IMG/VR virus record: IMGVR_UViG_3300046050_000015
Reading direction: 5' to 3' (one strand)
Source: an uncultured virus (IMG/VR IMGVR_UViG_3300046050_000015)
Taxonomy: Duplodnaviria; Heunggongvirae; Uroviricota; Caudoviricetes
Length of the DNA stretch: 20,000 nucleotides
In this document: in pieces, positions 1-13,573 of the stretch
Position numbering within the stretch: the stretch's first letter is position 1
Layout of the letters: each line of letters opens with the position of its first letter
The notes under the pieces: generated by a model
Database searches by the model: none
Told to the model about the DNA's origin: nothing
The model's input: only the letters and a program-made list of their open reading frames with translations
Position numbers and translations under genes: made by a program

Positions 1-665
1 CGCAAAATCTCCACAACCTTCCCGAGCACGTCGGACAGTTTCCGACTTACCGCGTCTTCGGTCTCGTTCGTATGAGGCGTCAGGGGCTCTCCACCATAAT
101 GCTTGGTTAGGCGCCGTTGATACAACCGCTCTTCTTCACTTTGGTCCTTATTCCCTCGGAAGGCGAGCGGCACGTTGTACCGACTCAGAATACTAGCAAT
201 CGTTTTAGCCTTACTCAGGTCCACCAGCTTTGCCCGTCCCAACGAAATAATCTTGAGGAGGTTCCCCATGCCCATCATGTCGATATCGTTCTTGCACCAG
301 TGCTCGGGTCCATCATCTTTCCACGTCAACCCTCGAAGTGCCTCTTTCACGTTTTCGTTGTTGTCGTTAACTTCCACGTCCCCCTTATACTTCCCGTAGA
401 GGCTCTTGGCGCAGAGGCTGTGAATGGTTCGGGCTTCGGCGTGGTCCGGCAACTTCTCATCGAGTTCATCTGAAATGTTCCGGTTGAACGCCAGGAAGAT
501 AACCTCTTGGTTTTCAGGCAATCGTTCGGCGGCCTCAATCGCGGTCGTGGTCTTGCCACTGCCGCTGACGGCGTTCACGATAACGTGTTTGTCTGTGTTT
601 TCGATAACGGAGAAAATGTCGGTTTGTTCGTCGGTCCATTCCCACCCGAGTTTGGCTTGCCTCAT
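1..665 (-). CDS. Superfamily 1 (UvrD/Rep-like) DNA helicase, N-terminal part, runs off the window
   Basis: Not in the ORF track. Manual translation from ATG at 665: MRQAKLGWEWTDEQTDIFSVIENTDKHVIVNAVSGSGKTTTAIE...VIFLAFNRNISDELDEKL...ARTIHSLC. This shows the Q-motif, Walker A (AVSGSGKT), motif Ia (LAFNR) and TIHS. ATGA overlap with the upstream gene. Confidence 0.9.
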   Translation of the reverse strand, partial: MRQAKLGWEWTDEQTDIFSVIENTDKHVIVNAVSGSGKTTTAIEAAERLPENQEVIFLAFNRNISDELDEKLPDHAEARTIHSLCAKSLYGKYKGDVEVNDNNENVKEALRGLTWKDDGPEHWCKNDIDMMGMGNLLKIISLGRAKLVDLSKAKTIASILSRYNVPLAFRGNKDQSEEERLYQRRLTKHYGGEPLTPHTNETEDAVSRKLSDVLGKVVEIL

Positions 666-3509: not shown

Positions 3510-5018
3510 ATGGACTCTCAGCGGTTACCAGTCAACAATCAACGTTTCCTACTCCCTGACGCCCAAAGCGCGGCGCAATTCCTCAGCTTTTACGAGGACG
3601 ACCGCAGAGAGGATGCCGCTGAGATGGCTAGTGCCGCGTTCGCCGGGAACAGTCTAGCCAACACGCGTGTCGAGGACCAACTCAGCAACCTCGGTGGCCA
3701 ACGCTCCTTCCGCAGTCGATTCAAAAAGGAGCAACACATTTACGGCAATCAGGAAACCGTGTGGGACCTGGACCTGGAGTATCTCCACAATCGTGACCCC
3801 ACGGTTCGAGCCATTAACCACCGACCCGCCGAAGACACCTGGTACCGGCTCCCCGAAACGAGTGTAGAGTCTATCGACGAATGGTTCACCCGCCTCATGA
3901 GGATGAAATACCATACCAAGGCCATCAGTGCCGATGCGCTCGGGCGGGCCTATGGGGGCGCGTTCCTATACATCAACGCCTCCGGTGACGTGAGCGAAGA
4001 GATTCCGAGACGAGGTGGAGAGATTCATGGTTTCACTGTTATTCATCCTCTATTGGTTGCTGACGATAGCGTGGAGTGGGATAACTCGGGTCGCCGCATT
4101 TATAAACAACATGGCATCAAGAGCATTCGACTCAATGCGAAACTTCTTCGCGGCGACGAAAACATCGGTTCTGAGGGTTCACGAGCCCGAACCAAACCCA
4201 TCGACGGTTCACGCCTCATCCACTTCAGCCCCGATGCTTCGACCGAGCACTGGCGAGGCAAACCCAAGATACTGCCTGCATTCGACACCATCAACGACCT
4301 CCGTGACATTATCTATGGGCAGACGAAGCAACAGTTCGAGGGTTCACCAATCGCTATCACTATCACTGAACCCGAGCAATTCGCCCTCGACGCCGAAAGC
4401 GAAGAACAACTAGAACAAGACATTCAACGCTTCGTTTCCGGTGGCGGTCAATTCTTCAGCCCCGTCAAGGGAGCCACGGTTCAGCGCGTCGGTGACCATG
4501 GTCTCGCCGACCCCGAGACGGCTCTCCACACGGTTGCTTCCCGGATTGCTCAAGACGTTGAGTTGCCCAAACAAATGATTCTGGCGACCGCGGGCAACGA
4601 CCAGGCTATCGATGAATCGACCGCCATGACCTACTCTTCACGCATCGCTGTCCGCCGCAACCGGTTCGCGTTCCCGATTCTTCAACACCTCACCCTTCTG
4701 GGTCAATGGGTTCGAGACATTCCCGCCACCGAGCAATTGCCCCTCGACCTCGACTGGCCGAGCCTTCGCATGATGAGTGCTCGTGAACGAGCTTACGTTC
4801 GCCGCACGAACTCGATGGCGCTGGACGTGGCTGAGAAATGGAACCGGGGCGTTGACAAGGAGGTCGAGGAAATGTTCCCCCAAGACGGGGGCTCCAATAT
4901 TGAGTCCCGCAAACCCGACCAAGACAACTCATCCGATGGTGAAGAGATGGATTCCTTCGACATGGAGATTCTTCACCGCCTTGACCGCATCGACCGAGAA
5001 TTGGAGGACCTACAATGA
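3510..5018 (+). CDS. Portal protein (DUF1073-like)
   Basis: 502 aa; RAINHRPAEDTW, GRAYGGAFLYI, DGSRLIHF, WRGKPKILPAFDTINDL, RIAQDVELPKQMIL and LDWPSL follow the DUF1073-type portal layout; first gene of the head module. Confidence 0.85.
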   Translation: MDSQRLPVNNQRFLLPDAQSAAQFLSFYEDDRREDAAEMASAAFAGNSLANTRVEDQLSNLGGQRSFRSRFKKEQHIYGNQETVWDLDLEYLHNRDPTVRAINHRPAEDTWYRLPETSVESIDEWFTRLMRMKYHTKAISADALGRAYGGAFLYINASGDVSEEIPRRGGEIHGFTVIHPLLVADDSVEWDNSGRRIYKQHGIKSIRLNAKLLRGDENIGSEGSRARTKPIDGSRLIHFSPDASTEHWRGKPKILPAFDTINDLRDIIYGQTKQQFEGSPIAITITEPEQFALDAESEEQLEQDIQRFVSGGGQFFSPVKGATVQRVGDHGLADPETALHTVASRIAQDVELPKQMILATAGNDQAIDESTAMTYSSRIAVRRNRFAFPILQHLTLLGQWVRDIPATEQLPLDLDWPSLRMMSARERAYVRRTNSMALDVAEKWNRGVDKEVEEMFPQDGGSNIESRKPDQDNSSDGEEMDSFDMEILHRLDRIDRELEDLQ

Positions 5019-5140: not shown

Positions 5141-5166
5141 TTTATAAACCTTGATAGTGGAGATTG
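5141..5166 (+). promoter_or_regulatory. Promoter of the protease-scaffold gene, with TGGAGATTG element
   Basis: TTTATAAA begins 32 nt before ATG 5173; TGGAGATTG at 5158-5166. Confidence 0.7.
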
Positions 5167-5172
5167 AGGATA

Positions 5173-6927
5173 ATGCCCGACGACATTCCTTCCCGGGTTG
5201 CGATTGCTGGCGGAGCCTTCAACACGTCCGTTCCCGGTAACGGCATGTGGTTCCAGCACGAACACATCGAAGACCTGGCCGAACAAATGGCTAGCGGTGG
5301 AGAGTTCGTCGCGAACCACGACCGAGAGATTGATGCTCTCGCTGGACTCGTCAAGGAGACCGAAGTCCTCGAAGATGTTACCCAGGACGACTTCGACCTT
5401 TCCGAGGAAAAGTTCGACGTTTGGGACGACGGCGGGAAACTCATCCAGTACAAGGCCGAACTTGAAGATGGGTTTCCGTCCTTCGACAAGGTAGCCGAAT
5501 CCATCCTTGTTCGTCAAGAGAAGGGTCTAACGCCGCACGTTTCGATGAGCATCGTCGGTGATGGGCTTGAATTCGACAGTGACAAGGGCTTCATTCTCGA
5601 AGGACCATACCGCTTCATTCACCTTGGCCACGTCGACAGCGGTGCACAGACCCCCGAGGAAGGCGTGGGCATCATGGATGTCGCCACGGACGACAGCGAA
5701 CTTACGATGATGTTCGACGAGGAGCCCGAGGTTGAGTTCAACGACGACGTACAACGCATGGGTTCCCGTGTTGCCCGCATGCCTGCCGAGATGTCCGTCC
5801 ACGTCGAAAACATGGACAACCTGATTCAAGAATTCAACGCCACGCACGAGATGAATTTCGAGGACGGGATGCTCAAGACCCGTCTCATGAATCTCAACCA
5901 TCCCGAACTCGTCGAAGAGAAGATGGAAGAAGAAAATTTCGGCGACGACCTCATGGACCTCACCGTTGACCAAATCGATGAACTGGTCGCAGAAGTCGAA
6001 GAAGGCCTCAACGAAGAGGTCGGGGAAACTCCCGAAGAGAACCTCGACGAAGGGTCCGACAAGCCCACGACTGGCGAGAAGAGGGTGCGTGATAGTCCCG
6101 ATGTTGGGGCGTACAGTGACTTCTCCGAGGCCGAAGGCGTAGGCAAAGGCCCTGGCTCCAGCTCTACATTACCCAATACTGAACTCCACGCAGAAACCGG
6201 TGACTCCGACTCCATGGCGGCTGACGCCAAGGAAGGCCTCGACGAGAAGATGGAAGACGTGCTACATGCCCCCAATTCTCAACTCGGTTCTAGTTCCAAT
6301 TCATCTTCAGGACCAATTACGCCCGAAAACGCTTCTGAAGTCTTAAGTAAGGCGAATACAGAAGAACGTCCTGAAGAACAACTAGGTGACATGACCTTGA
6401 GTTCTGAAACTACCGACGACGCCGACCTCGATGAAGCAGACGTGGAGGAGCTAGACGAATCCACTGCTGTGGAAGCCGAGGAGTCTCCCGAGGCCGCAGA
6501 GGCTGAGGTCGAGACTGAGGCAGAGGCCGCCGAGGCCGACGCTGATGTTGAAGCCGACGCCGAGGCCTCCGAGGACGGCGACGACCTCCCCAAGGAGGAA
6601 CTGAAGCGCGAACTTGCGCGAGAGCGCGAAGAGCGCCAGGACCTCGAACGGAAGGTCGACGTTCTCTTCTCCGAATACCAGGACGAGAAGGAACAACGCC
6701 TCGAACGACTCCGTGACGACCTCATGGTCGAGCACGGCGTCTCCGAAGAGACCCTTCAAACGTTCAACTCCGAGACACAGCTTGAAGCCCTAAAGGCCGA
6801 GCTTGAATCTCGTGAGACGAACGACCTTGGCATTGTGGAAGTCGAGCAAGGCCACGACGACAACGATAGCGAGTTCGAGCAATGGCGAGAGGAAACTCTC
6901 AGCGACGGACCGCTAGGTGATGTATGA
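5173..6927 (+). CDS. Prohead protease fused to acidic scaffolding region
   Basis: N-terminal FVANHDREIDALAG (His), HVSMS (Ser) and FIHLGHVDSGA resemble DUF2213/HK97-type proteases; long acidic linker; C-terminal coiled coil; sits between portal and capsid. Confidence 0.8.
   Translation: MPDDIPSRVAIAGGAFNTSVPGNGMWFQHEHIEDLAEQMASGGEFVANHDREIDALAGLVKETEVLEDVTQDDFDLSEEKFDVWDDGGKLIQYKAELEDGFPSFDKVAESILVRQEKGLTPHVSMSIVGDGLEFDSDKGFILEGPYRFIHLGHVDSGAQTPEEGVGIMDVATDDSELTMMFDEEPEVEFNDDVQRMGSRVARMPAEMSVHVENMDNLIQEFNATHEMNFEDGMLKTRLMNLNHPELVEEKMEEENFGDDLMDLTVDQIDELVAEVEEGLNEEVGETPEENLDEGSDKPTTGEKRVRDSPDVGAYSDFSEAEGVGKGPGSSSTLPNTELHAETGDSDSMAADAKEGLDEKMEDVLHAPNSQLGSSSNSSSGPITPENASEVLSKANTEERPEEQLGDMTLSSETTDDADLDEADVEELDESTAVEAEESPEAAEAEVETEAEAAEADADVEADAEASEDGDDLPKEELKRELAREREERQDLERKVDVLFSEYQDEKEQRLERLRDDLMVEHGVSEETLQTFNSETQLEALKAELESRETNDLGIVEVEQGHDDNDSEFEQWREETLSDGPLGDV
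6391..6927 (+). CDS. Putative nested in-frame scaffolding protein
   Basis: CTAGGTGA SD-like site directly before in-frame ATG 6391 and TTG 6397; TATA-like CTTAAGTA at about 6342. Confidence 0.5.
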   Translation: MTLSSETTDDADLDEADVEELDESTAVEAEESPEAAEAEVETEAEAAEADADVEADAEASEDGDDLPKEELKRELAREREERQDLERKVDVLFSEYQDEKEQRLERLRDDLMVEHGVSEETLQTFNSETQLEALKAELESRETNDLGIVEVEQGHDDNDSEFEQWREETLSDGPLGDV

Positions 6928-7457
6928 TGTCCACGACAGTAGACGATATTAACGACCAGCCGACCGTCACCCGCAACGAGGTAGACGCGCACGGCATGGT
7001 GTTTGTTAGCGGGCCAAGCCGTATCGACGAAGGCGTTGCCGACAATGCCGTTACCCCGGGTGCTCTTCTTGTGGCGGGAGCCACGGGCGAGGAGTACGTC
7101 GACGAGACTAGCGGTGTTGACGCCAACGTCATCGCATACGCACTTGAGAACGACTGGCAAAAGGTCGACCCCGAGGCTGCTGCCGCCGACGACACCCCCT
7201 ATTACAACGATTTCTCCGCGGACGAGCACGTTCCCTACAACAAGGCGACCGATTCCGAGTTCAAGGGAATGCTTGCCGCCGGCGAGAACGTGAGTAAGGG
7301 CGATAACCTGGTTCCCGCTTCTGGTGGGGAGCTTCAGGCCTACGACTCCGGTGCCGCCAACCACACCCCGGACGACATCGTTGCCCAGGCACAAGAAGAC
7401 CTGGACAACAGCGGCTCCACTGAGACGGCTCGGCTTCACGCCAAGTTCCAACCCTAA
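6924..7457 (+). CDS. Capsid cement/decoration protein
   Basis: 177 aa directly before the MCP; ADNAVTPGALL...LAAGENVSKGDNLVPASGGEL...IVAQAQEDLD resembles beta-tulip/DUF2190-like cement proteins; SD AGGTGA. Confidence 0.7.
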   Translation: MMSTTVDDINDQPTVTRNEVDAHGMVFVSGPSRIDEGVADNAVTPGALLVAGATGEEYVDETSGVDANVIAYALENDWQKVDPEAAAADDTPYYNDFSADEHVPYNKATDSEFKGMLAAGENVSKGDNLVPASGGELQAYDSGAANHTPDDIVAQAQEDLDNSGSTETARLHAKFQP

Positions 7458-7482
7458 CGTAAACTAACGAGGTAACAAAACA

Positions 7483-8394
7483 ATGGCATATCCAATTCCT
7501 GACCTAGACGGCTTCATTGATGAAGTCCAAGATGCCCTAGTTCCGCGGATGCGTCGGCAACTCACTGCCGCGCAATTCGTCACGGACCGTACCGTTGAGG
7601 ACCTTGGTATCAAGGAGTACCGTTGGCAAGAGCGTACCGACCTTGACGGTGTGCGTGCGACGATGGAGATTCCTGACCCGAGCCAATCGGACCAAGGGAA
7701 CATCATCGAGCACAACGTCGAACTTCCGGTGTTCACGCGCGACATGCACTATGACGGGCGTGATTTCCTTGCCTACCAGCGGACCGGTCTCGACACCACG
7801 GACGCCGAAGAGGCGGGCCGCATCATGGGTGAGTTCCTGAACGATTACTTCTACCTTGGCGGTGGGCTCAGTGGTGAGGACATCCCGGGTCCTGACACGG
7901 GCCTTCTCAACAACCCCGACCGTCTTGAGGTAGATAATACGGGGTCGTCTAACTGGGAGAACCCCGAGGACTTCGTGAACGACCTTGCCGAGGCCATCGC
8001 GGACCTTGGTCTCCACCGCCAGGACCCACCTTACGTACTGCTTGCGGACCCGGCGGACATGGACCTGTTCCAGAAGGTTCGAAGCGAGACGGACGCCCGA
8101 GCCACGGACCTGCTACAGGACGACATGATTCGTGGTCCGGTGTTCGATGAGGTTGTCACTGGAACCCGCGACGAGGACGGTAACAGTCAGACCGGAGAGA
8201 TGTTCCTGTTCAAGGCTTCCTCCGACAATTATGACTGGGTTACTCCCTTCAGTGGTTTCGGCGACGTGCGCCGAGTCACCGAAGAGGGCGAGGACCTCAT
8301 GGGGCAGGGTCTCTGGGTGCGGTGGCTCACCGCTGGTGCGCCGCGCGTTATCCGGGGCGACTCTGTTTGCCGCGTCGTAGGCGACCGCAGCTAG
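7483..8394 (+). CDS. Major capsid protein, HK97 fold, encapsulin(Linocin M18)/DUF2184-like
   Basis: ELPVFTRDMHYDGRDFLAYQRTGLDTTDAEEAGRIMGEFLNDYFYLG, TGLLNNP, WENPEDFVNDLAEAIADL and PPYVLL; 303 aa; SD GAGGT. Confidence 0.85.
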   Translation: MAYPIPDLDGFIDEVQDALVPRMRRQLTAAQFVTDRTVEDLGIKEYRWQERTDLDGVRATMEIPDPSQSDQGNIIEHNVELPVFTRDMHYDGRDFLAYQRTGLDTTDAEEAGRIMGEFLNDYFYLGGGLSGEDIPGPDTGLLNNPDRLEVDNTGSSNWENPEDFVNDLAEAIADLGLHRQDPPYVLLADPADMDLFQKVRSETDARATDLLQDDMIRGPVFDEVVTGTRDEDGNSQTGEMFLFKASSDNYDWVTPFSGFGDVRRVTEEGEDLMGQGLWVRWLTAGAPRVIRGDSVCRVVGDRS

Positions 8395-8424
8395 GTGACC
8401 TCACCTTAGCCGGGTGACACCGGC
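8393..8424. terminator. Possible hairpins between convergent stops
   Basis: AGGTGA-CC-TCACCT (8393-8406) and GCCGG...CCGGC (8409-8424), followed by a pyrimidine-rich tract on the plus strand. Confidence 0.3.
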
Positions 8425-9050
8425 CTCCAATCCCCCCTTTCTTTCCCTTCTTCATACTTGCTATCTCGTTCGTTAGCGTAGCCCAGGTCCTCCATAACTA
8501 AACGATTACCGCCACTGTAGGCGGTGTGTTGGATGGCTGAAGCTTGAGATTGAGTCATGTTGAGAAGGTACACATCTTCCTCGTAGTAGAACGTGTCGAA
8601 CGCTCCGCCTTCTTGACCATCGTAACTGACCACGTTGTCGATGTTTTCAAAGTCCCTAACCGATACCCCAGCTTCGTTGGCCACCTTGAGGACTTCGGTC
8701 TTGGCATCCTGAATGAAGTCCTCGTAACGAATAATGACATCAGCTCTCTCCACCCACGATTTGTATTTGGCCAGGTAGCCACCGATAATCGGACGAATAA
8801 TGTTGCCGACCCAGTTACACTCTACACCGTGCTCTTCCTCGTATCGCTGGAAGCTATCAAACCAAGCCCATGGGTTCTTTGCAATGACGACGACCGTCCA
8901 CCCTTCCATGATTTCCAGGGTGTGGAGATTGTGCTTCCCCTCGGGACTCCGGCTATGGATGTGAATATTGTCGAGGTTCTTGCAGAGGAGTTCTTCCAAG
9001 TAGTTGGTTCCGGTTCGTCGTGCCCCGTAAATCTTTACGTTCGTCGTCAC
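8406..9050 (-). CDS. PAPS-dependent sulfotransferase-family protein
   Basis: 5'-PSB-like loop IYGARRTGTNYLEELL, 3'-PB-like VIAKNPWAWFDSF, and IIRYEDFIQD; GTG start with its own promoter. Confidence 0.8.
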   Translation of the reverse strand: MTTNVKIYGARRTGTNYLEELLCKNLDNIHIHSRSPEGKHNLHTLEIMEGWTVVVIAKNPWAWFDSFQRYEEEHGVECNWVGNIIRPIIGGYLAKYKSWVERADVIIRYEDFIQDAKTEVLKVANEAGVSVRDFENIDNVVSYDGQEGGAFDTFYYEEDVYLLNMTQSQASAIQHTAYSGGNRLVMEDLGYANERDSKYEEGKERGDWRPVSPG

Positions 9051-9073
9051 GGGGTCGGTATACTTCTTTATCG

Positions 9074-9087
9074 ATATAAGGGTTTCG
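9074..9087 (-). promoter_or_regulatory. Promoter of the sulfotransferase gene
   Basis: Minus strand CGAAACCCTTATAT is a canonical haloarchaeal BRE+TATA; TATA 24-30 nt before GTG 9050. Confidence 0.7.
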
Positions 9088-9102
9088 GGTGCTACCCCAC
9101 AC

Positions 9103-9123
9103 TTTTAACCTCTCAAACGCAAA
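9103..9123 (+). promoter_or_regulatory. Promoter restarting rightward transcription
   Basis: TTTTAA begins 36 nt before ATG 9139. Confidence 0.5.
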
Positions 9124-9138
9124 TCTTGACTGTTAGCT

Positions 9139-9492
9139 ATGACTGTATTCACCCCTGACTCTCAACCAACCAATGTCGGGGATACGACCGTAGCCGTGGA
9201 CATCCCACCCCGGTACCGGTCGTTCCGCATTGACCGCATCATCGTTGTACAGGACAACGGTAGTGCGTCCAGTTATGACGTGACCGCTACAACGGATAGC
9301 GCTACCTCTGACCGTTCACAACAAATCGCCAAGTTCACTGGGGCTACCTCTTCGGACTCCGTTGACCACGACAATGGCGGCAACGGGTATGTGTGGGAAG
9401 ATAACAAGAGCGCCATCCACGTCGACATTGGTGTAGATGGGGGCACGGATAACAACTTTACCGTCAAGCTTATTATCAATAGGGTTGATTGA
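9139..9492 (+). CDS. Small all-beta putative virion protein
   Basis: 117 aa; alternating hydrophobic strands; T/S/D/G-rich; located just after the MCP. Confidence 0.65.
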   Translation: MTVFTPDSQPTNVGDTTVAVDIPPRYRSFRIDRIIVVQDNGSASSYDVTATTDSATSDRSQQIAKFTGATSSDSVDHDNGGNGYVWEDNKSAIHVDIGVDGGTDNNFTVKLIINRVD

Positions 9493-9494
9493 AT

Positions 9495-10562
9495 ATGGGA
9501 GTTGAACAAGAGTACCCTCGGGGTCCCGGGCAAGATGTTCAGGATGAGGTTCAACAGCTCCAAGAGGATGGCGCGTTAACCTGGATGAAGAGTGACGCCC
9601 CCAGTGTGGATGAGTCCGGTGGTCAATACTCCGCCCACGTGACACTTTTCGAGCCATCAGAAGGTCAAATTGGTTCGCCCGATATCGATATCAGTGGAGC
9701 CAGTGTTACGCTTGAGCGCTCCACCGATGGGGGGTCGTTCAGTACGACGAGTGTTACCCAGCCCACCCTCTCTAAGGCGGATGGTGTAGTTGAGGTCGTG
9801 TTCGATATCGCGGGGTCCGAGTGGACTGTTGGTGACACGTATCGCCTCACCATTGATGGTGTAGAGGCTAACGATAGCGACGGTAATACGTTCAATATCC
9901 CGACGGTGCGCTGGGTTGGTTCCACGAACCGGGATTCGGGGGTGCAGTCCAAGGTTTCCATTCTTCACAATACCCGCGTCCCGGATATCTTATCCCTGTC
10001 GAACATCCAAGATGAAGCGGAGGATGCTCTCTTAGCGGACCTGAGCAGCAATAGTCCAGATTCGTCTTCGGTTGTGGATGTCACCTCTACCCTTGAGTCC
10101 CGGTTGCCGGGCTCGGGCACCCTCTCCACGCATGCTTGGGACCCTGATGGGGTTATCCCGTCCGCGGGCACGGTCGCGGTGGCAACCGACCTGGACCCCG
10201 TTGAGCGACGACAACCACCAGATGCAGGAAGTATCACACTCAGCGACGATACCGATAATGGACTCATTGCTCTTGGAAGTGTTGGTAGGTCTGTGACGCA
10301 TTACCTTGATGCCTTGTATGCTGATGTTACGCTTGGCGACCATACCCAAGTAACGTTCAAGCTTACCGTTGACGTGAACGGAAACAAGGCACAGGTGAAC
10401 ACACTCACCGTGAGTAGTAGTGGCCCTGTGGACGTACTTAGTGACGCTGGGTGGGAAGTTCCCGCTAGTGCCCTTGTCGAGGTTGACGTTGCTGGTGACG
10501 CCGCGAACCCCTCGACGAACGGTAACGTTGATTTCAGCGCTGAACATAGCCAGGCTGAGTGA
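9495..10562 (+). CDS. Putative virion spike/fibre protein (N- and C-terminal beta domains, central linker)
   Basis: About 355 aa; beta-rich ends; start at ATG 9495 or TTG 9489. Confidence 0.6.
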   Translation: MGVEQEYPRGPGQDVQDEVQQLQEDGALTWMKSDAPSVDESGGQYSAHVTLFEPSEGQIGSPDIDISGASVTLERSTDGGSFSTTSVTQPTLSKADGVVEVVFDIAGSEWTVGDTYRLTIDGVEANDSDGNTFNIPTVRWVGSTNRDSGVQSKVSILHNTRVPDILSLSNIQDEAEDALLADLSSNSPDSSSVVDVTSTLESRLPGSGTLSTHAWDPDGVIPSAGTVAVATDLDPVERRQPPDAGSITLSDDTDNGLIALGSVGRSVTHYLDALYADVTLGDHTQVTFKLTVDVNGNKAQVNTLTVSSSGPVDVLSDAGWEVPASALVEVDVAGDAANPSTNGNVDFSAEHSQAE

Positions 10563-10567
10563 TACTG

Positions 10568-11008
10568 ATGTTTCCAGCCGAAATGGTCCCTGATGGAGCC
10601 CTATTTGCCCCCCACCATTACCTCCTGGGCACATTTGTTGCCTTGTTTGTCTTCGCGCTTCTGTGGGATAACTACCGGAACGACGAACCTACCACCACCG
10701 TAGGGTTGACCATAGTTTCCTTGTTCGGGTGGGCGTTCACCTGGAAGTATTATCCCACCCTAGGTGCATCGATGGCCATCGTAGGCACCTTTGGGGCAAC
10801 CTTCGTGTTGCTTTGGGATGGGTTCATCGCGCCCCGGTTCAGGTTCCCCTCACCCTTTGGTGACCGATGGGAAGATTATCCTTTGAAGTGGAGAGTGGTG
10901 GGGTTAGTTGGGTCGTTGATTGCCGTGGACGACCTGCTTAGTCATGCCTTCGGCCTTTGGACTCCCTTGGATGCCGTTTGGCCATATATTGTGCCTTATA
11001 TCACCTGA
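10568..11008 (+). CDS. Multi-pass membrane protein (about 4 TM)
   Basis: LFAPHHYLLGTFVALFVFALLW...LIAVDDLLSHAFGLWTPLD; four hydrophobic segments; start at 10559 or 10568. Confidence 0.75.
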   Translation: MFPAEMVPDGALFAPHHYLLGTFVALFVFALLWDNYRNDEPTTTVGLTIVSLFGWAFTWKYYPTLGASMAIVGTFGATFVLLWDGFIAPRFRFPSPFGDRWEDYPLKWRVVGLVGSLIAVDDLLSHAFGLWTPLDAVWPYIVPYIT

Positions 11009-11011
11009 TAG

Positions 11012-11044
11012 TCCAAACTTTTATATAAGACGAGTTGGAGATTG
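11012..11044 (+). promoter_or_regulatory. Promoter with TGGAGATTG element
   Basis: CCAAACTTTTATATAAG is nearly identical to 2044-2060; TGGAGATTG at 11036-11044; ATG 11051. Confidence 0.75.
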
Positions 11045-11050
11045 GTGGGT

Positions 11051-11365
11051 ATGCCTGAGACTTACGAGTATTACGTCCGGAACTTCGTCGACAAGGACGG
11101 CAAGCGTTACAAGCGCCAGGTTCTCGAACTCCCGAAAGTTGTCGCTGCTTATTTCGAGCTGGAGCCACACACCGAAGCGGCAGAATACGACGAAGACATC
11201 CTCAACCAAGACGTTACAGAGACCGATGTCGTAACGGAAACCCCAGACATCGAAGTCGACCCAGACAACCACTACAAGGATGGTCTCGTCGAGCTTGCCG
11301 AGGCTCTAGACCTCGACACCGAGGGCAGCAAGGACGAGCTTGTGGAACGCATCAACGAGGCTTAA
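11051..11365 (+). CDS. Acidic protein with C-terminal SAP/HeH (Rho-N-like) motif
   Basis: YKDGLVELAEALDLDTEGSKDELVERINEA matches the helix-extension-helix pattern. Confidence 0.7.
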   Translation: MPETYEYYVRNFVDKDGKRYKRQVLELPKVVAAYFELEPHTEAAEYDEDILNQDVTETDVVTETPDIEVDPDNHYKDGLVELAEALDLDTEGSKDELVERINEA

Positions 11366-11380
11366 TCGGTCCCCCCATAA

Positions 11381-11395
11381 ACCAACCCTTTTCAA
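11381..11395 (+). promoter_or_regulatory. Possible promoter variant
   Basis: ACCAACCCTTTTCAA; T-run begins 31 nt before ATG 11420. Confidence 0.4.
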
Positions 11396-11419
11396 GGCTC
11401 AGGACGCAAACTCTGGGTA

Positions 11420-11614
11420 ATGCCCAGGGTTAGGACCAGAATCAATATCCACGACACCGTACCCCCCAATCGTAGCCTTACCGTCGAGGACCCTGAAACT
11501 GGGAAACTATCAGCCGTCGAAACAGACTATGGCTTTGTGACGATTCGAGCCGATTATACGCGGGACGACGACCACCCGTTCAACATCCAGAAGGTCGAAT
11601 TCAGCATCGTATGA
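11420..11614 (+). CDS. Hypothetical protein (64 aa)
   Basis: Fills the gap between neighbours on the coding strand; promoter-like element upstream. Confidence 0.6.
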   Translation: MPRVRTRINIHDTVPPNRSLTVEDPETGKLSAVETDYGFVTIRADYTRDDDHPFNIQKVEFSIV

Positions 11615-11623
11615 GAGGATACC

Positions 11624-13573
11624 GTGACAAATTATAGCACCACCTGGGATAAGACGAATCTCCTCTGCAAGGAAAACCTAAATCGGGTAGAGGGGGAACT
11701 TGCCAAGATGTGTCCCACCCACCCCGAGCGTGCACGACTCGTGGATAGGGCGAACGGTATCCATCTCTCCTATCTGGACGAGGGTCACCACAAAGAAATT
11801 CAATCTGCCAACAACGCAAAGTATGGCGATGGGATTACAAATGCAAGATTCAGAGTAACGGATAGTGCCTTCGAAGCCACGTCATCTCTCGCCTATTTCT
11901 TCTCCCTCGAACTCAGCAATACGTCCACTACCGTTATCCGCCAACAAAATGGTAGCGAGTATGCTAACGTATTCATCAACTCAAGTGGTGAATTAGCCTA
12001 TGACGACGATGGGGGGTCTGGAGTTTCCTCAGGTACCGCGGTCAGTCAGGGGGAATACCAAATAACTCTCCACCGTGTCGATAACGGCAACGGCACAGCA
12101 GATACCAAAGTCAAACTCTTCAACAGTGACGGCACCCTTCATAGCTCTATCGATATCACGAATCGCTCCCTGCCTAGTGGGTCTGGGGGACAAGTGACGT
12201 TAGGGGATTTTACCATCACTGATGTCACCTTTTACGAATCGCGCATCTGGGTAGATGACATTCCTAGCCAGGCCGACCTTGACACGATGGCTGACCCGAA
12301 CGCAACCGGGCCAACAAACTTTGAAGACAAGGTGGAGGGACAAGAAACCGCGGCCTGGTTCCATGAACCAGCACCGGTTCGGAACAATAGCTGGGGGGAC
12401 CGTAACGGCTCCTCGGAGGCAACCGGGAACGGTGCGACGCGGGCCCTTGGAAACATTATCCAGAACCAGGACAACATTCGAATCGTAACAATTACCCCCC
12501 ACCTCTCTGCACCGCTTGGAAACATCGCCAAGGCAACCGTCGAGGTAGGGACAGACCTCAGCAACGCGGTGGACTACAAGCCAGCCGAAGTATCCCAAGA
12601 GTCGGGGGCAAGCACACAACGTGAGCGTCGATACCCAGTGTCGTTCCTCGTCAAACCCGGTGAAGAGTACCGAATCAAGGATGCCTCTTCTTCGGGTGGT
12701 GGTGTCTCGCTTGCGAGCAGCGACGGCGCGACATGGTACGAGTTCGACTTCGATGCAACCTACTCTCCACAATCGTGGACCCATAACGAGAACCTAGACC
12801 CGGGAAAGCTTCGAACCTACGCCCATAACGCGTTTGGTGTTGGTGATACGACGACGGGCTCTGACGCGCGATATGAGACCAAGTTAGGTAACGAGGTTAA
12901 CGTTGAGGGGATGAATCTCGTTACCCATAATTTCAATATGGGTTCCGGTCTGAGTACAAACAGTGAAGCCAACATTGACCAACGGGACAAAGACGGAACC
13001 TTGTCCAACATTGCCTCGGCATTCATTCAAAACAGTGATGGTACGATGGATACTAGTGCATTTTTTGGTGTGAATCCCTCGGGTGCTTATCAATACTATG
13101 CAGTGAATGGTGACGTTAATGATGCGTATGGGGTTGAGAATAGACCACCCACCCTCCCTGTTGTTTCGTTCCAAGATGGAAACGTTGGGGGGTCGGTTGA
13201 TACCAAGTTTACGGACCTCGACAACAACACGGCGAAGGGTCTCAACATCGAGCAAGACCCCACACGTAACGAGGACGTGAATGGGAACGATGGAAGCAAA
13301 AGCACCCCATCGGGTGATAGATGGTCCATCGTTAGCGCTACTGTAGCTCTACAACCTAGCTCAACTTCCACCGCCCAGTACTCAGAGATTCGGCTTTGGG
13401 ATACATCCGATACCGAGAAATGGGGCCTAATTCCCCAGGAATATATTTCGGCAACCACTACAGATGCTAACACTTACCGAACGATGATGACCTTCGTCCC
13501 GCCGGACTGGAGTTGGGACCTTCAAATCGATTCCAATTCAACGATTACCAAACGAACAGAGTGGGTGCTATGA
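11624..13573 (+). CDS. Putative receptor-binding fibre: LamG/ConA-like domain plus three tandem tip-like beta domains
   Basis: N-terminal W...LCKENLNRVE fibre-anchor-like motif; LamG-like FYESRIWVDDIPSQADL; repeated FLVKPGEEY / FGVNPSGAY / TFVPPDWSW; GAGG before the GTG start. Confidence 0.65.
   Translation: MTNYSTTWDKTNLLCKENLNRVEGELAKMCPTHPERARLVDRANGIHLSYLDEGHHKEIQSANNAKYGDGITNARFRVTDSAFEATSSLAYFFSLELSNTSTTVIRQQNGSEYANVFINSSGELAYDDDGGSGVSSGTAVSQGEYQITLHRVDNGNGTADTKVKLFNSDGTLHSSIDITNRSLPSGSGGQVTLGDFTITDVTFYESRIWVDDIPSQADLDTMADPNATGPTNFEDKVEGQETAAWFHEPAPVRNNSWGDRNGSSEATGNGATRALGNIIQNQDNIRIVTITPHLSAPLGNIAKATVEVGTDLSNAVDYKPAEVSQESGASTQRERRYPVSFLVKPGEEYRIKDASSSGGGVSLASSDGATWYEFDFDATYSPQSWTHNENLDPGKLRTYAHNAFGVGDTTTGSDARYETKLGNEVNVEGMNLVTHNFNMGSGLSTNSEANIDQRDKDGTLSNIASAFIQNSDGTMDTSAFFGVNPSGAYQYYAVNGDVNDAYGVENRPPTLPVVSFQDGNVGGSVDTKFTDLDNNTAKGLNIEQDPTRNEDVNGNDGSKSTPSGDRWSIVSATVALQPSSTSTAQYSEIRLWDTSDTEKWGLIPQEYISATTTDANTYRTMMTFVPPDWSWDLQIDSNSTITKRTEWVL

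Follow-up and report, generated by a model that had tools for sequence, protein, structure and literature searches.

A predicted compact sulfotransferase encoded antisense beside the probable capsid gene of a putatively haloarchaeal tailed virus

The stretch of DNA analysed here (the window) is a 20-kb portion of the genome of an uncultured tailed virus (IMG/VR record IMGVR_UViG_3300046050_000015) and holds 22 open reading frames (ORFs). One of them, P0001, lies on the minus strand directly after the probable major capsid gene, and it had originally been predicted to encode a sulfotransferase that uses 3′-phosphoadenosine 5′-phosphosulfate (PAPS). The features at the locus are the following:

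8406..9050, minus strand: coding sequence of the sulfotransferase-fold protein P0001 (214 amino acids, GTG start, no internal stops)
9087-9083 and 9079-9074, minus strand: motifs of the P0001 gene that resemble a transcription factor B recognition element (BRE) and a TATA box, CGAAA and TTATAT, at -37..-33 and -29..-24 from the GTG
9102..9128, plus strand: promoter-like block, CTTTTAA at 9102-9108 and then ACGCAAAT, serving the unit that starts at 9139

The stop codons of the P0001 gene (minus strand) and of the capsid gene (7483-8394, plus strand) are 11 nucleotides (nt) apart, so the two genes are convergent, in agreement with the antisense position directly after the capsid gene that was described originally. 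The N-terminus of P0001 is in register with those of its aligned relatives, and a start at the next in-frame start codon would remove the nucleotide-binding loop. An overlapping ORF on the plus strand (8544-9158) was considered as the true gene and rejected, as it has no Pfam match. Given the alignment of the N-terminus and the lack of a family match for the competing ORF, 8406-9050 is a genuine gene at these coordinates. Its product appears to be soluble, and no N-terminal hydrophobic stretch was seen by eye.

The first half of P0001 carries a 5′-phosphosulfate-loop-like motif, 9-GARRTGTNY-17, which comes after a strand modelled at residues 3-8 and is of the Arg type (R12-T-G-T15), and a candidate 3′-phosphate element, K58-x7-S66 (KNPWAWFDS), with K39-H40 placed between the two. 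The order of phosphosulfate loop, His, and [R/K]-x7-S is common to P0001 and the PAPS-dependent sulfotransferases. Because K39-H40 sits where sulfotransferases place their catalytic base, H40 is likely, by position, to be the putative base. A further motif, 108-RYEDF-112, is of the RYED[LF] type that is common in the bacterial-type sulfotransferase family. Two differences from typical sulfotransferases are that P0001 is around 50 to 100 residues shorter (214 vs 250-390 amino acids) and that it has Lys instead of Arg at position 58, a conservative replacement and the majority residue in its own family.

When 1.84 billion representatives were searched exhaustively, 130 relatives of P0001 were found at an expectation value (E) of ≤1e-3, the best at E 7.2e-12 and 32% identity, and most of them 180 to 230 amino acids long. 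The 52 in which a single matched stretch covers most of P0001 were aligned. H40 is kept in all 52, positions G9, R12, G14, T15, K39, P60, W63, S66, and E110 each show a conservation of 90% or more, and P0001 itself has the family residue at every position conserved to this degree. PAPS-binding-like motifs, as noted in the original prediction, are present (GARRTGTNY, KNPWAWFDS, and RYEDF) and conserved across the 52 relatives. No relative above 40% identity was found in any search, including those of IMG/VR and of a word-indexed protein collection, the latter giving P0001 itself and nothing else, and 50,697 phage records contained no match by tblastn or megablast. In the ESM Atlas, the nearest clusters consist of "sulfotransferase family" proteins of around 200 amino acids or of viral hypothetical proteins.

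A check against the hidden Markov models of Sulfotransfer_1 and Sulfotransfer_3, as proposed with the original prediction, gave a divided answer. P0001 alone matches Sulfotransfer_3 over residues 7-37 (model positions 4-29; E 2.1e-3, 18.8 bits vs a cut-off of 27) and Sulfotransfer_1 over residues 90-132 (E 1.3e-3, 18.6 bits vs a cut-off of 22), in both cases below the cut-off, and these two sub-threshold matches cover the two diagnostic regions. Among the aligned relatives, in contrast, 40 of the 52 match Sulfotransfer_3 (best 5.8e-13) and 25 match Sulfotransfer_1 (best 4e-12) at E ≤0.01, with a stray DUF1977 match in one. When the family profile was compared with the Protein Data Bank (PDB), 70 sequences were found at E ≤1, and all 60 of the matches listed belong to the sulfotransferase family, including retinol dehydratase, the CurM and olefin-synthase domains, Stf1, and an Anopheles enzyme. 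The best of them is mouse SULT7A1 (5x2b, E 4.2e-10), in which RNPKDTAVS, the R-x7-S element that binds the 3′-phosphate, stands opposite the family consensus KNPyaWldS. In five PDB matches, the aligned stretch starts at the profile position of H40 (chain residues 111-123).

An AlphaFold (AF2) model built from the 52-row alignment has a mean predicted local distance difference test (pLDDT) of 91.7 and a predicted template modelling score of 0.88, and it is confident over residues 1-195 and weak over the last 20 or so. When this model was compared with 48,161 chains using VIA-align, ranks 1 to 21 were all sulfotransferase-family proteins (Z 12.3-8.9, 167-190 residues aligned, 9-17% identity), with SULT7A1 at the top (Z 12.3). 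Known PAPS-dependent sulfotransferases of PF00685 and PF13469, for instance 5x2b, the Alicyclobacillus protein 3rnl, the olefin-synthase sulfotransferase domain 4gox, and human TPST1/2, have the same fold as P0001, at Z 11-12. A Foldseek search agrees, as the rows listed down to rank 44 are all sulfotransferases and GTPases appear at ranks 45 and 47.

Nucleotide kinases enter the VIA-align ranking at rank 22 (Z 8.8-6.6), which raises the question of whether P0001 is a working sulfotransferase at all or instead a relative of P-loop nucleotide or small-molecule kinases, or else a degenerate, non-catalytic remnant. Sulfotransferases and nucleotide kinases do share their core fold, the direct Pfam scores are below the cut-offs, and position 58 has Lys where Arg is usual. 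The kinase alignments, however, extend over only 104 to 131 residues, which corresponds to the shared core, vs 167 to 190 for the sulfotransferases. Furthermore, the Walker A pattern GxxxxGK[ST] is not matched, because the loop of P0001 reads G9-ARRT-G14-T15-N16, with Thr in place of the Walker A lysine, and both the retention of each highly conserved family position and the confident model over residues 1-195 speak against a remnant. We therefore give this explanation only a slim chance. Since the best structural matches are sulfotransferases and not nucleotide kinases (Z ≤8.8), so that the refuting outcome named with the original prediction did not occur, we read P0001 as a compact PAPS-type sulfotransferase, and fold, motifs, and family profile agree so well with that part of the original prediction that we consider it very probably a genuine one. 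As its whole-protein scores are under the gathering cut-offs, we place it in the superfamily and not in Pfam Sulfotransfer_1 or Sulfotransfer_3; by sequence and predicted structure, it is a member of a divergent, compact subfamily that lies outside the Pfam families as they are drawn.

Upstream of the gene, the presence of its own BRE/TATA, as stated originally, is supported by the CGAAA and TTATAT motifs between -37 and -24 from the GTG, with a spacing that would be that of haloarchaeal BRE/TATA elements on leaderless transcripts. This spacing implies that the P0001 transcript would be leaderless or nearly so. The first base of CGAAA is 9087, the same position at which the originally described element ended. 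In the 88-nt spacer between the P0001 gene and the next gene (9051-9138), there are thus two promoter-like elements that point away from each other, since on the plus strand TTTTAA (9103-9108) lies 31 to 36 nt ahead of the ATG at 9139. The whole 20 kb contains only 49 A/T runs of at least six letters, and two of these are found within the spacer at promoter-like distances. The pattern CTTTT-N8-14-ACGCAAA, which was picked post hoc, is found at two places in the window (9102-9123 and 11388-11410) vs 0.02 copies expected by chance, and both copies precede plus-strand ATGs (9139 and 11420). The CGAAA/TTATAT pair of the P0001 gene is unlike this CTTTT...ACGCAAA arrangement of its plus-strand neighbours, and such a difference in promoter type suggests that the P0001 gene may be transcribed alone and regulated apart from the virion genes.

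No intrinsic-terminator-like site and no sigma-70-like promoter were found in 8200-9400, and an inverted-repeat search around the P0001 gene also gave nothing that resembles a terminator. A pyrimidine- and T-rich run at around 8432-8453, within the part of the gene that encodes the unconserved C-terminal tail, could be the end of the capsid transcript. Some phages alter the surface of their host by means of morons or lysogenic-conversion genes, with O-antigen acetylases, glucosylases, and the morons of lambda/HK97-type phages as examples. Like these, the P0001 gene is a lone accessory gene that has promoter-like motifs to itself and lies on the other strand among virion genes, and for it, too, a role in surface modification is plausible. 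Unlike them, it has no terminator that we could find and no deviant composition, as its GC content of 0.51 (vs 0.60 in the capsid gene) falls within the 0.50 to 0.60 range of the genes of the window. The proposal of an inserted, self-contained moron-like cassette is not supported by these features, and nothing at the locus points to a recent insertion. As for lysogenic conversion, nothing in the 20-kb window marks the virus as temperate. It is doubtful that the second promoter restarts the structural genes, as had been proposed: a promoter-like block is indeed present on the plus strand, but the genes that follow it are two of no recognised family and one for a membrane protein:

9139..10562, plus strand: P0140 (117 amino acids) and P0141 (357 amino acids, rich in Ser, Thr, and Asp), divergent from the P0001 gene
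10568..11008, plus strand: P0142, a hydrophobic membrane protein of 146 amino acids (Rhomboid E 7.7e-4, below the cut-off)

Neither P0140 nor P0141 has a Pfam, PHROG, or PADLOC match, and P0141 has four relatives at 35-51% identity. We also observed that P0142 is placed midway in an apparent block of virion genes.

A comparison with a related virus suggests that this part of the genome is variable. The whole stretch is present in one halite-metagenome run, which may be its source, and partly in X2, a halite run that belongs to another study, in which contigs are around 87 to 95% like the window over 6172-8389 and 10557-11917. In this close relative, one contig stops at 8389 and another restarts at 10557, so that none crosses the site of P0001. 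The contig that restarts at 10557 (around 87% like the window over 10557-11691) has 121 additional letters before that point that do not fit the window there; nevertheless, the last 30 of them, compared by eye, resemble window positions 9099-9128, as 24 of 29 positions agree if a gap of one base is allowed. Thus, in the relative, the promoter block would abut the membrane-protein gene (ATG at 10568), without P0140 and P0141 in between. P0140 and P0141 (9139-10562) therefore appear to be an insertion or deletion between close relatives that has the promoter at one end and the next start codon at the other, and their absence between the promoter and P0142 in the relative indicates that the region after the capsid gene is plastic. 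Over 8390-10556, X2 gives no cover apart from a 51-nt piece that is 80% like the RYEDF region. This piece has AT-rich flanks and was taken to come from an unrelated sulfotransferase.

Relatives of P0001 were also found in other viruses. Using a profile from an 8-sequence alignment, we detected them, at 24-36% identity, in 18 IMG/VR contigs, and the surroundings of six (one for each set of near-identical matches, the remaining twelve being left out) were scanned. Five of the six have glycosyltransferases no more than 6 kb away, accompanied by epimerases, carbamoyl- or methyltransferases, or additional sulfotransferases, and the sixth has an FkbM/RfbT-like methyltransferase. The glycosyltransferases around five of the six scanned relatives suggest that the family usually works in sugar pathways. 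At one locus (L001, 5355-7394), three tandem sulfotransferase-like genes are followed by two family-2 glycosyltransferases, and two clear Sulfotransfer_3 genes flank the relative of P0001. At two others, in low-GC, T4-like contigs (L015, 5983-6600, and L016, 3875-4492), the relative is opposite in strand to all its neighbours, has neck and sheath-stabiliser genes beside it, and is embedded in an island that encodes glycosyltransferases, epimerases, and FkbM methyltransferases.

The locus of P0001 lacks this context. Glycosyltransferase or PAPS-synthesis genes, which the original prediction had suggested looking for elsewhere in the genome, were sought within the 20-kb window, and the remaining 21 ORFs gave no match to either kind, nor to any sugar-nucleotide gene, at E ≤0.01. 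Whereas its viral relatives are mostly located in sugar-biosynthesis islands, P0001 stands alone and antisense, beside a capsid gene, in what appears to be the virus of a halophile. As a small, stand-alone, virus-encoded protein, it resembles the sulfotransferases annotated in tailed phages, such as those of OM43-phage metagenomic genomes and of Synechococcus phage S-SRM01 (PMC10580990). The same source reports annotated Sulfotransfer_3 genes in marine phages and calls their function unclear.

Such a solitary gene could encode an enzyme for a small molecule or a non-glycan metabolite, for example a lipid, a cofactor, a signal, or an antibiotic-like compound, and would then be an auxiliary metabolic or host-takeover gene that has nothing to do with surfaces. 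The absence of sugar genes from the window fits this case, P0001 is minimal in size and has no extra substrate-binding domains, and the closest structures include cytosolic small-molecule enzymes (SULT7A1, Z 12.3; SULT3A1, Z 12.0; SULT1B1, Z 11.8) as well as enzymes of natural-product synthesis (the olefin synthase domain, Z 11.8; StaL, Z 10.8). The function described as unclear for the phage sulfotransferases (PMC10580990) also leaves space for it. However, the window contains no candidate small-molecule pathway, and the relatives in five of the six scanned viral loci lie among glycosyltransferases and sugar-nucleotide enzymes. We consider small-molecule sulfation improbable, and a carbohydrate acceptor for P0001 a proposition on which the balance is even.

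As regards the host, 20 of the 22 ORFs of the window encode proteins with an isoelectric point (pI) of ≤5.2, a Shine-Dalgarno-like 5-mer precedes 8 of the 22 genes vs a 9.4% background, and A/T boxes are found 24 to 36 nt upstream of the starts of the first genes of units. A haloarchaeal host is favoured by the halite source, the acidic proteins, and these start signals, and we consider it probable. Other signals are few: the window has no tRNA genes, the portal and fibre proteins have single weak matches to bacterial phages, and an ESM Atlas host lookup returned "Viruses" only. The N-terminal part of a superfamily 1 helicase (window 3-665) is closest to Salinibacter viruses, with 45% identity over 85 residues. 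The Salinibacter virus stretch has no synteny with the window, and no other window gene matches these viruses. A Salinibacter host was considered less likely because, in the one 11-kb stretch compared, none of 14 genes has a Shine-Dalgarno-like motif vs 8 of 22 here and the window proteins are more acidic than those of that stretch (median pI 5.4).

The sulfation of N-glycans and glycolipids is characteristic of haloarchaeal envelopes. Haloarchaeal N-glycans carry sulfate (PMC11407970), and on the spike of the halovirus HRPV-1 a glycan made by the host contains sulphated glucuronic acid (PMC6137143). For the tailed virus HRTV-DL1, some structural proteins are reported to be glycosylated, possibly including the capsid protein, and the virus is unaffected by the loss of the host AglB (PMC10384203).

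One use of a viral sulfotransferase would be the decoration of the particle itself, through sulfation of virion Tyr, Ser, or Thr residues, or of sugars on them, which would add negative charge to the capsid or fibres. The position of the P0001 gene within the head-tail block, directly after the probable capsid gene, fits this idea, as do the tyrosylprotein sulfotransferases among the structural matches (VIA-align Z 11.2-11.3), which presumably share with P0001 the Arg-type phosphosulfate loop. The neck and sheath-stabiliser genes beside the relatives in the two T4-like contigs point the same way, and so do the glycosylated structural proteins reported for HRTV-DL1 (PMC10384203) and the mycobacteriophage glycosyltransferases that the abstract of PMC11256854 links to capsid glycosylation. 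In the mycobacteriophage case, the gene for the modifying enzyme lies right after the capsid gene, as it does here; the system is nevertheless defined by glycosyltransferases, and there is none in the 20-kb window. Furthermore, N-X-S/T sequons are absent from the capsid protein and show no excess over expectation in the fibre and other structural proteins, so the virion-glycan sulfation that the original prediction had proposed finds no direct backing in the 20 kb. The opposite strand and different promoter type of the P0001 gene speak against its co-expression with virion genes as well. Particle decoration is, in our view, improbable, to about the same degree as small-molecule sulfation, but both virion decoration (including tyrosine sulfation) and the small-molecule alternative are serious rivals of a cell-surface role.

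The reading that we prefer, tentatively and with somewhat less than even confidence, is that P0001 is an active sulfotransferase acting on a host-made glycoconjugate. Host-made lipid-linked glycans or glycolipids would be the best fit for a soluble enzyme that has its own promoter and comes without a glycosyltransferase of its own. In this model, a soluble, compact, probably active PAPS-dependent sulfotransferase would be expressed from the CGAAA/TTATAT promoter, under a regulation apart from that of the virion genes, and, as the window has no PAPS-synthesis gene, it would draw on host PAPS as a donor. The enzyme may then sulfate, on the cytoplasmic side, a hydroxyl group of either a glycolipid or a dolichol-linked N-glycan precursor, and the resulting change in the charge and identity of the cell surface during infection could mask the receptor or stop the re-adsorption of progeny. 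The superinfection exclusion proposed originally would be pure conjecture. That the target is a host envelope glycoconjugate rather than the virion is, taken by itself, somewhat doubtful. The broadest form of the idea, in which a haloarchaeal tailed virus brings a sulfotransferase to re-sulfate the dolichol-linked N-glycans or glycolipids of its host, or its own particle, and thereby rewrites the S-layer receptor landscape, seems unlikely to us.

Several observations weigh against action on a host-made glycoconjugate. Some concern the enzyme: P0001 alone is under both Pfam cut-offs, and searches with the single sequence gave no match in NCBIfam, the PDB, or PADLOC and only E 0.22 as the best value in PHROGs; the Foldseek scores are weak (best E 9e-4, template modelling scores 0.36-0.54); and in VIA-align the best kinase (Z 8.8) comes close behind the lowest sulfotransferase of the top block (Z 8.9), although the aligned lengths differ. 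Others concern its substrate and expression. The structural comparison does not discriminate the type of acceptor, as small-molecule, polyketide, tyrosine, and heparan enzymes are all found at Z 10-12; the window contains no sugar or PAPS-synthesis genes; the promoters and the host domain have been inferred from motifs only; and a GTG start on a leaderless transcript is perhaps inefficient.

Viral sulfotransferases are already known by annotation, and what is notable in P0001 is the halophile setting, the solitary antisense placement, and the very confident model. Our search for literature joining a sulfotransferase with a haloarchaeal virus found no paper, and none of the halovirus papers listed reports a virus-encoded sulfotransferase; the one halovirus paper in which the word appears concerns a host PAPS reductase annotation. 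The word is absent from a 2024 review on archaeal N-glycosylation, and a 2026 review on S-layers and viruses does not mention sulfation. As a compact, confidently modelled viral enzyme from a hypersaline community, P0001 is a tractable candidate for asking whether viruses edit surface sulfation and would serve as a probe for the sulfation of archaeal glycans. If a haloarchaeal virus did sulfate glycans or its particle in this way, no sulfotransferase of a prokaryotic virus would have had its function defined before P0001, and P0001 would provide a first lead to the enzymes, so far without names, by which haloarchaeal glycans are sulfated. If it turned out to be a small-molecule enzyme, P0001 would be an ordinary auxiliary gene.

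The genes on the other side of P0001 form part of a virion block on the plus strand, in the order portal gene, gene for a 587-amino-acid protein, scaffold/decoration-like gene, and capsid gene:

3510-5018, plus strand: portal gene (Phage_portal_3 E 3.6e-11; phrog_146 E 2.7e-21)
5164-6927, plus strand: gene for a very acidic 587-amino-acid protein (28% Asp+Glu)
6924-7457, plus strand: scaffold/decoration-like gene
7483-8394, plus strand: probable HK97-fold major capsid gene, with weak but concordant matches

The assignment of 7483-8394 as a probable HK97-type major capsid gene is based on several matches. The gene matches Linocin_M18 (E 6.5e-4), its product matches phrog_264, "major head protein" (E 0.005), and encapsulins match at E 0.04. 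The single relative found, 49% identical and located on a 10.6-kb contig, matches phrog_264 at 6.2e-7 and Major_capside at E 2.2e-4. The annotated capsid genes of two Brevundimonas phages are 27% identical (E 1e-5). No capsid relatives were found in IMG/VR, the JGI metagenomes, or the GTDB genomes, and an AF2 model built from two sequences is unusable (pLDDT 36.1). Downstream of P0001, a 1348-amino-acid protein has one concanavalin A-like lectin domain (Laminin_G_3, E 1.2e-21); for the fibres described originally as lectin-rich, this is the single lectin match.

Other observations concern the more distant parts of the window. An acidic low-complexity stretch of the 587-amino-acid protein gene, at around 6505-6590, attracts many unrelated halite contigs, some of which have an extra 36-nt repeat unit there. 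The ORF at 1761-2336 (TTG start, pI 9.25) would encode the sole basic protein in an otherwise acidic set. Two long A/T runs (2021-2031 and 2051-2059) lie within this ORF, and there are direct repeats 277 to 278 nt apart; the region (1483-2336) may be regulatory or origin-like instead of a gene.

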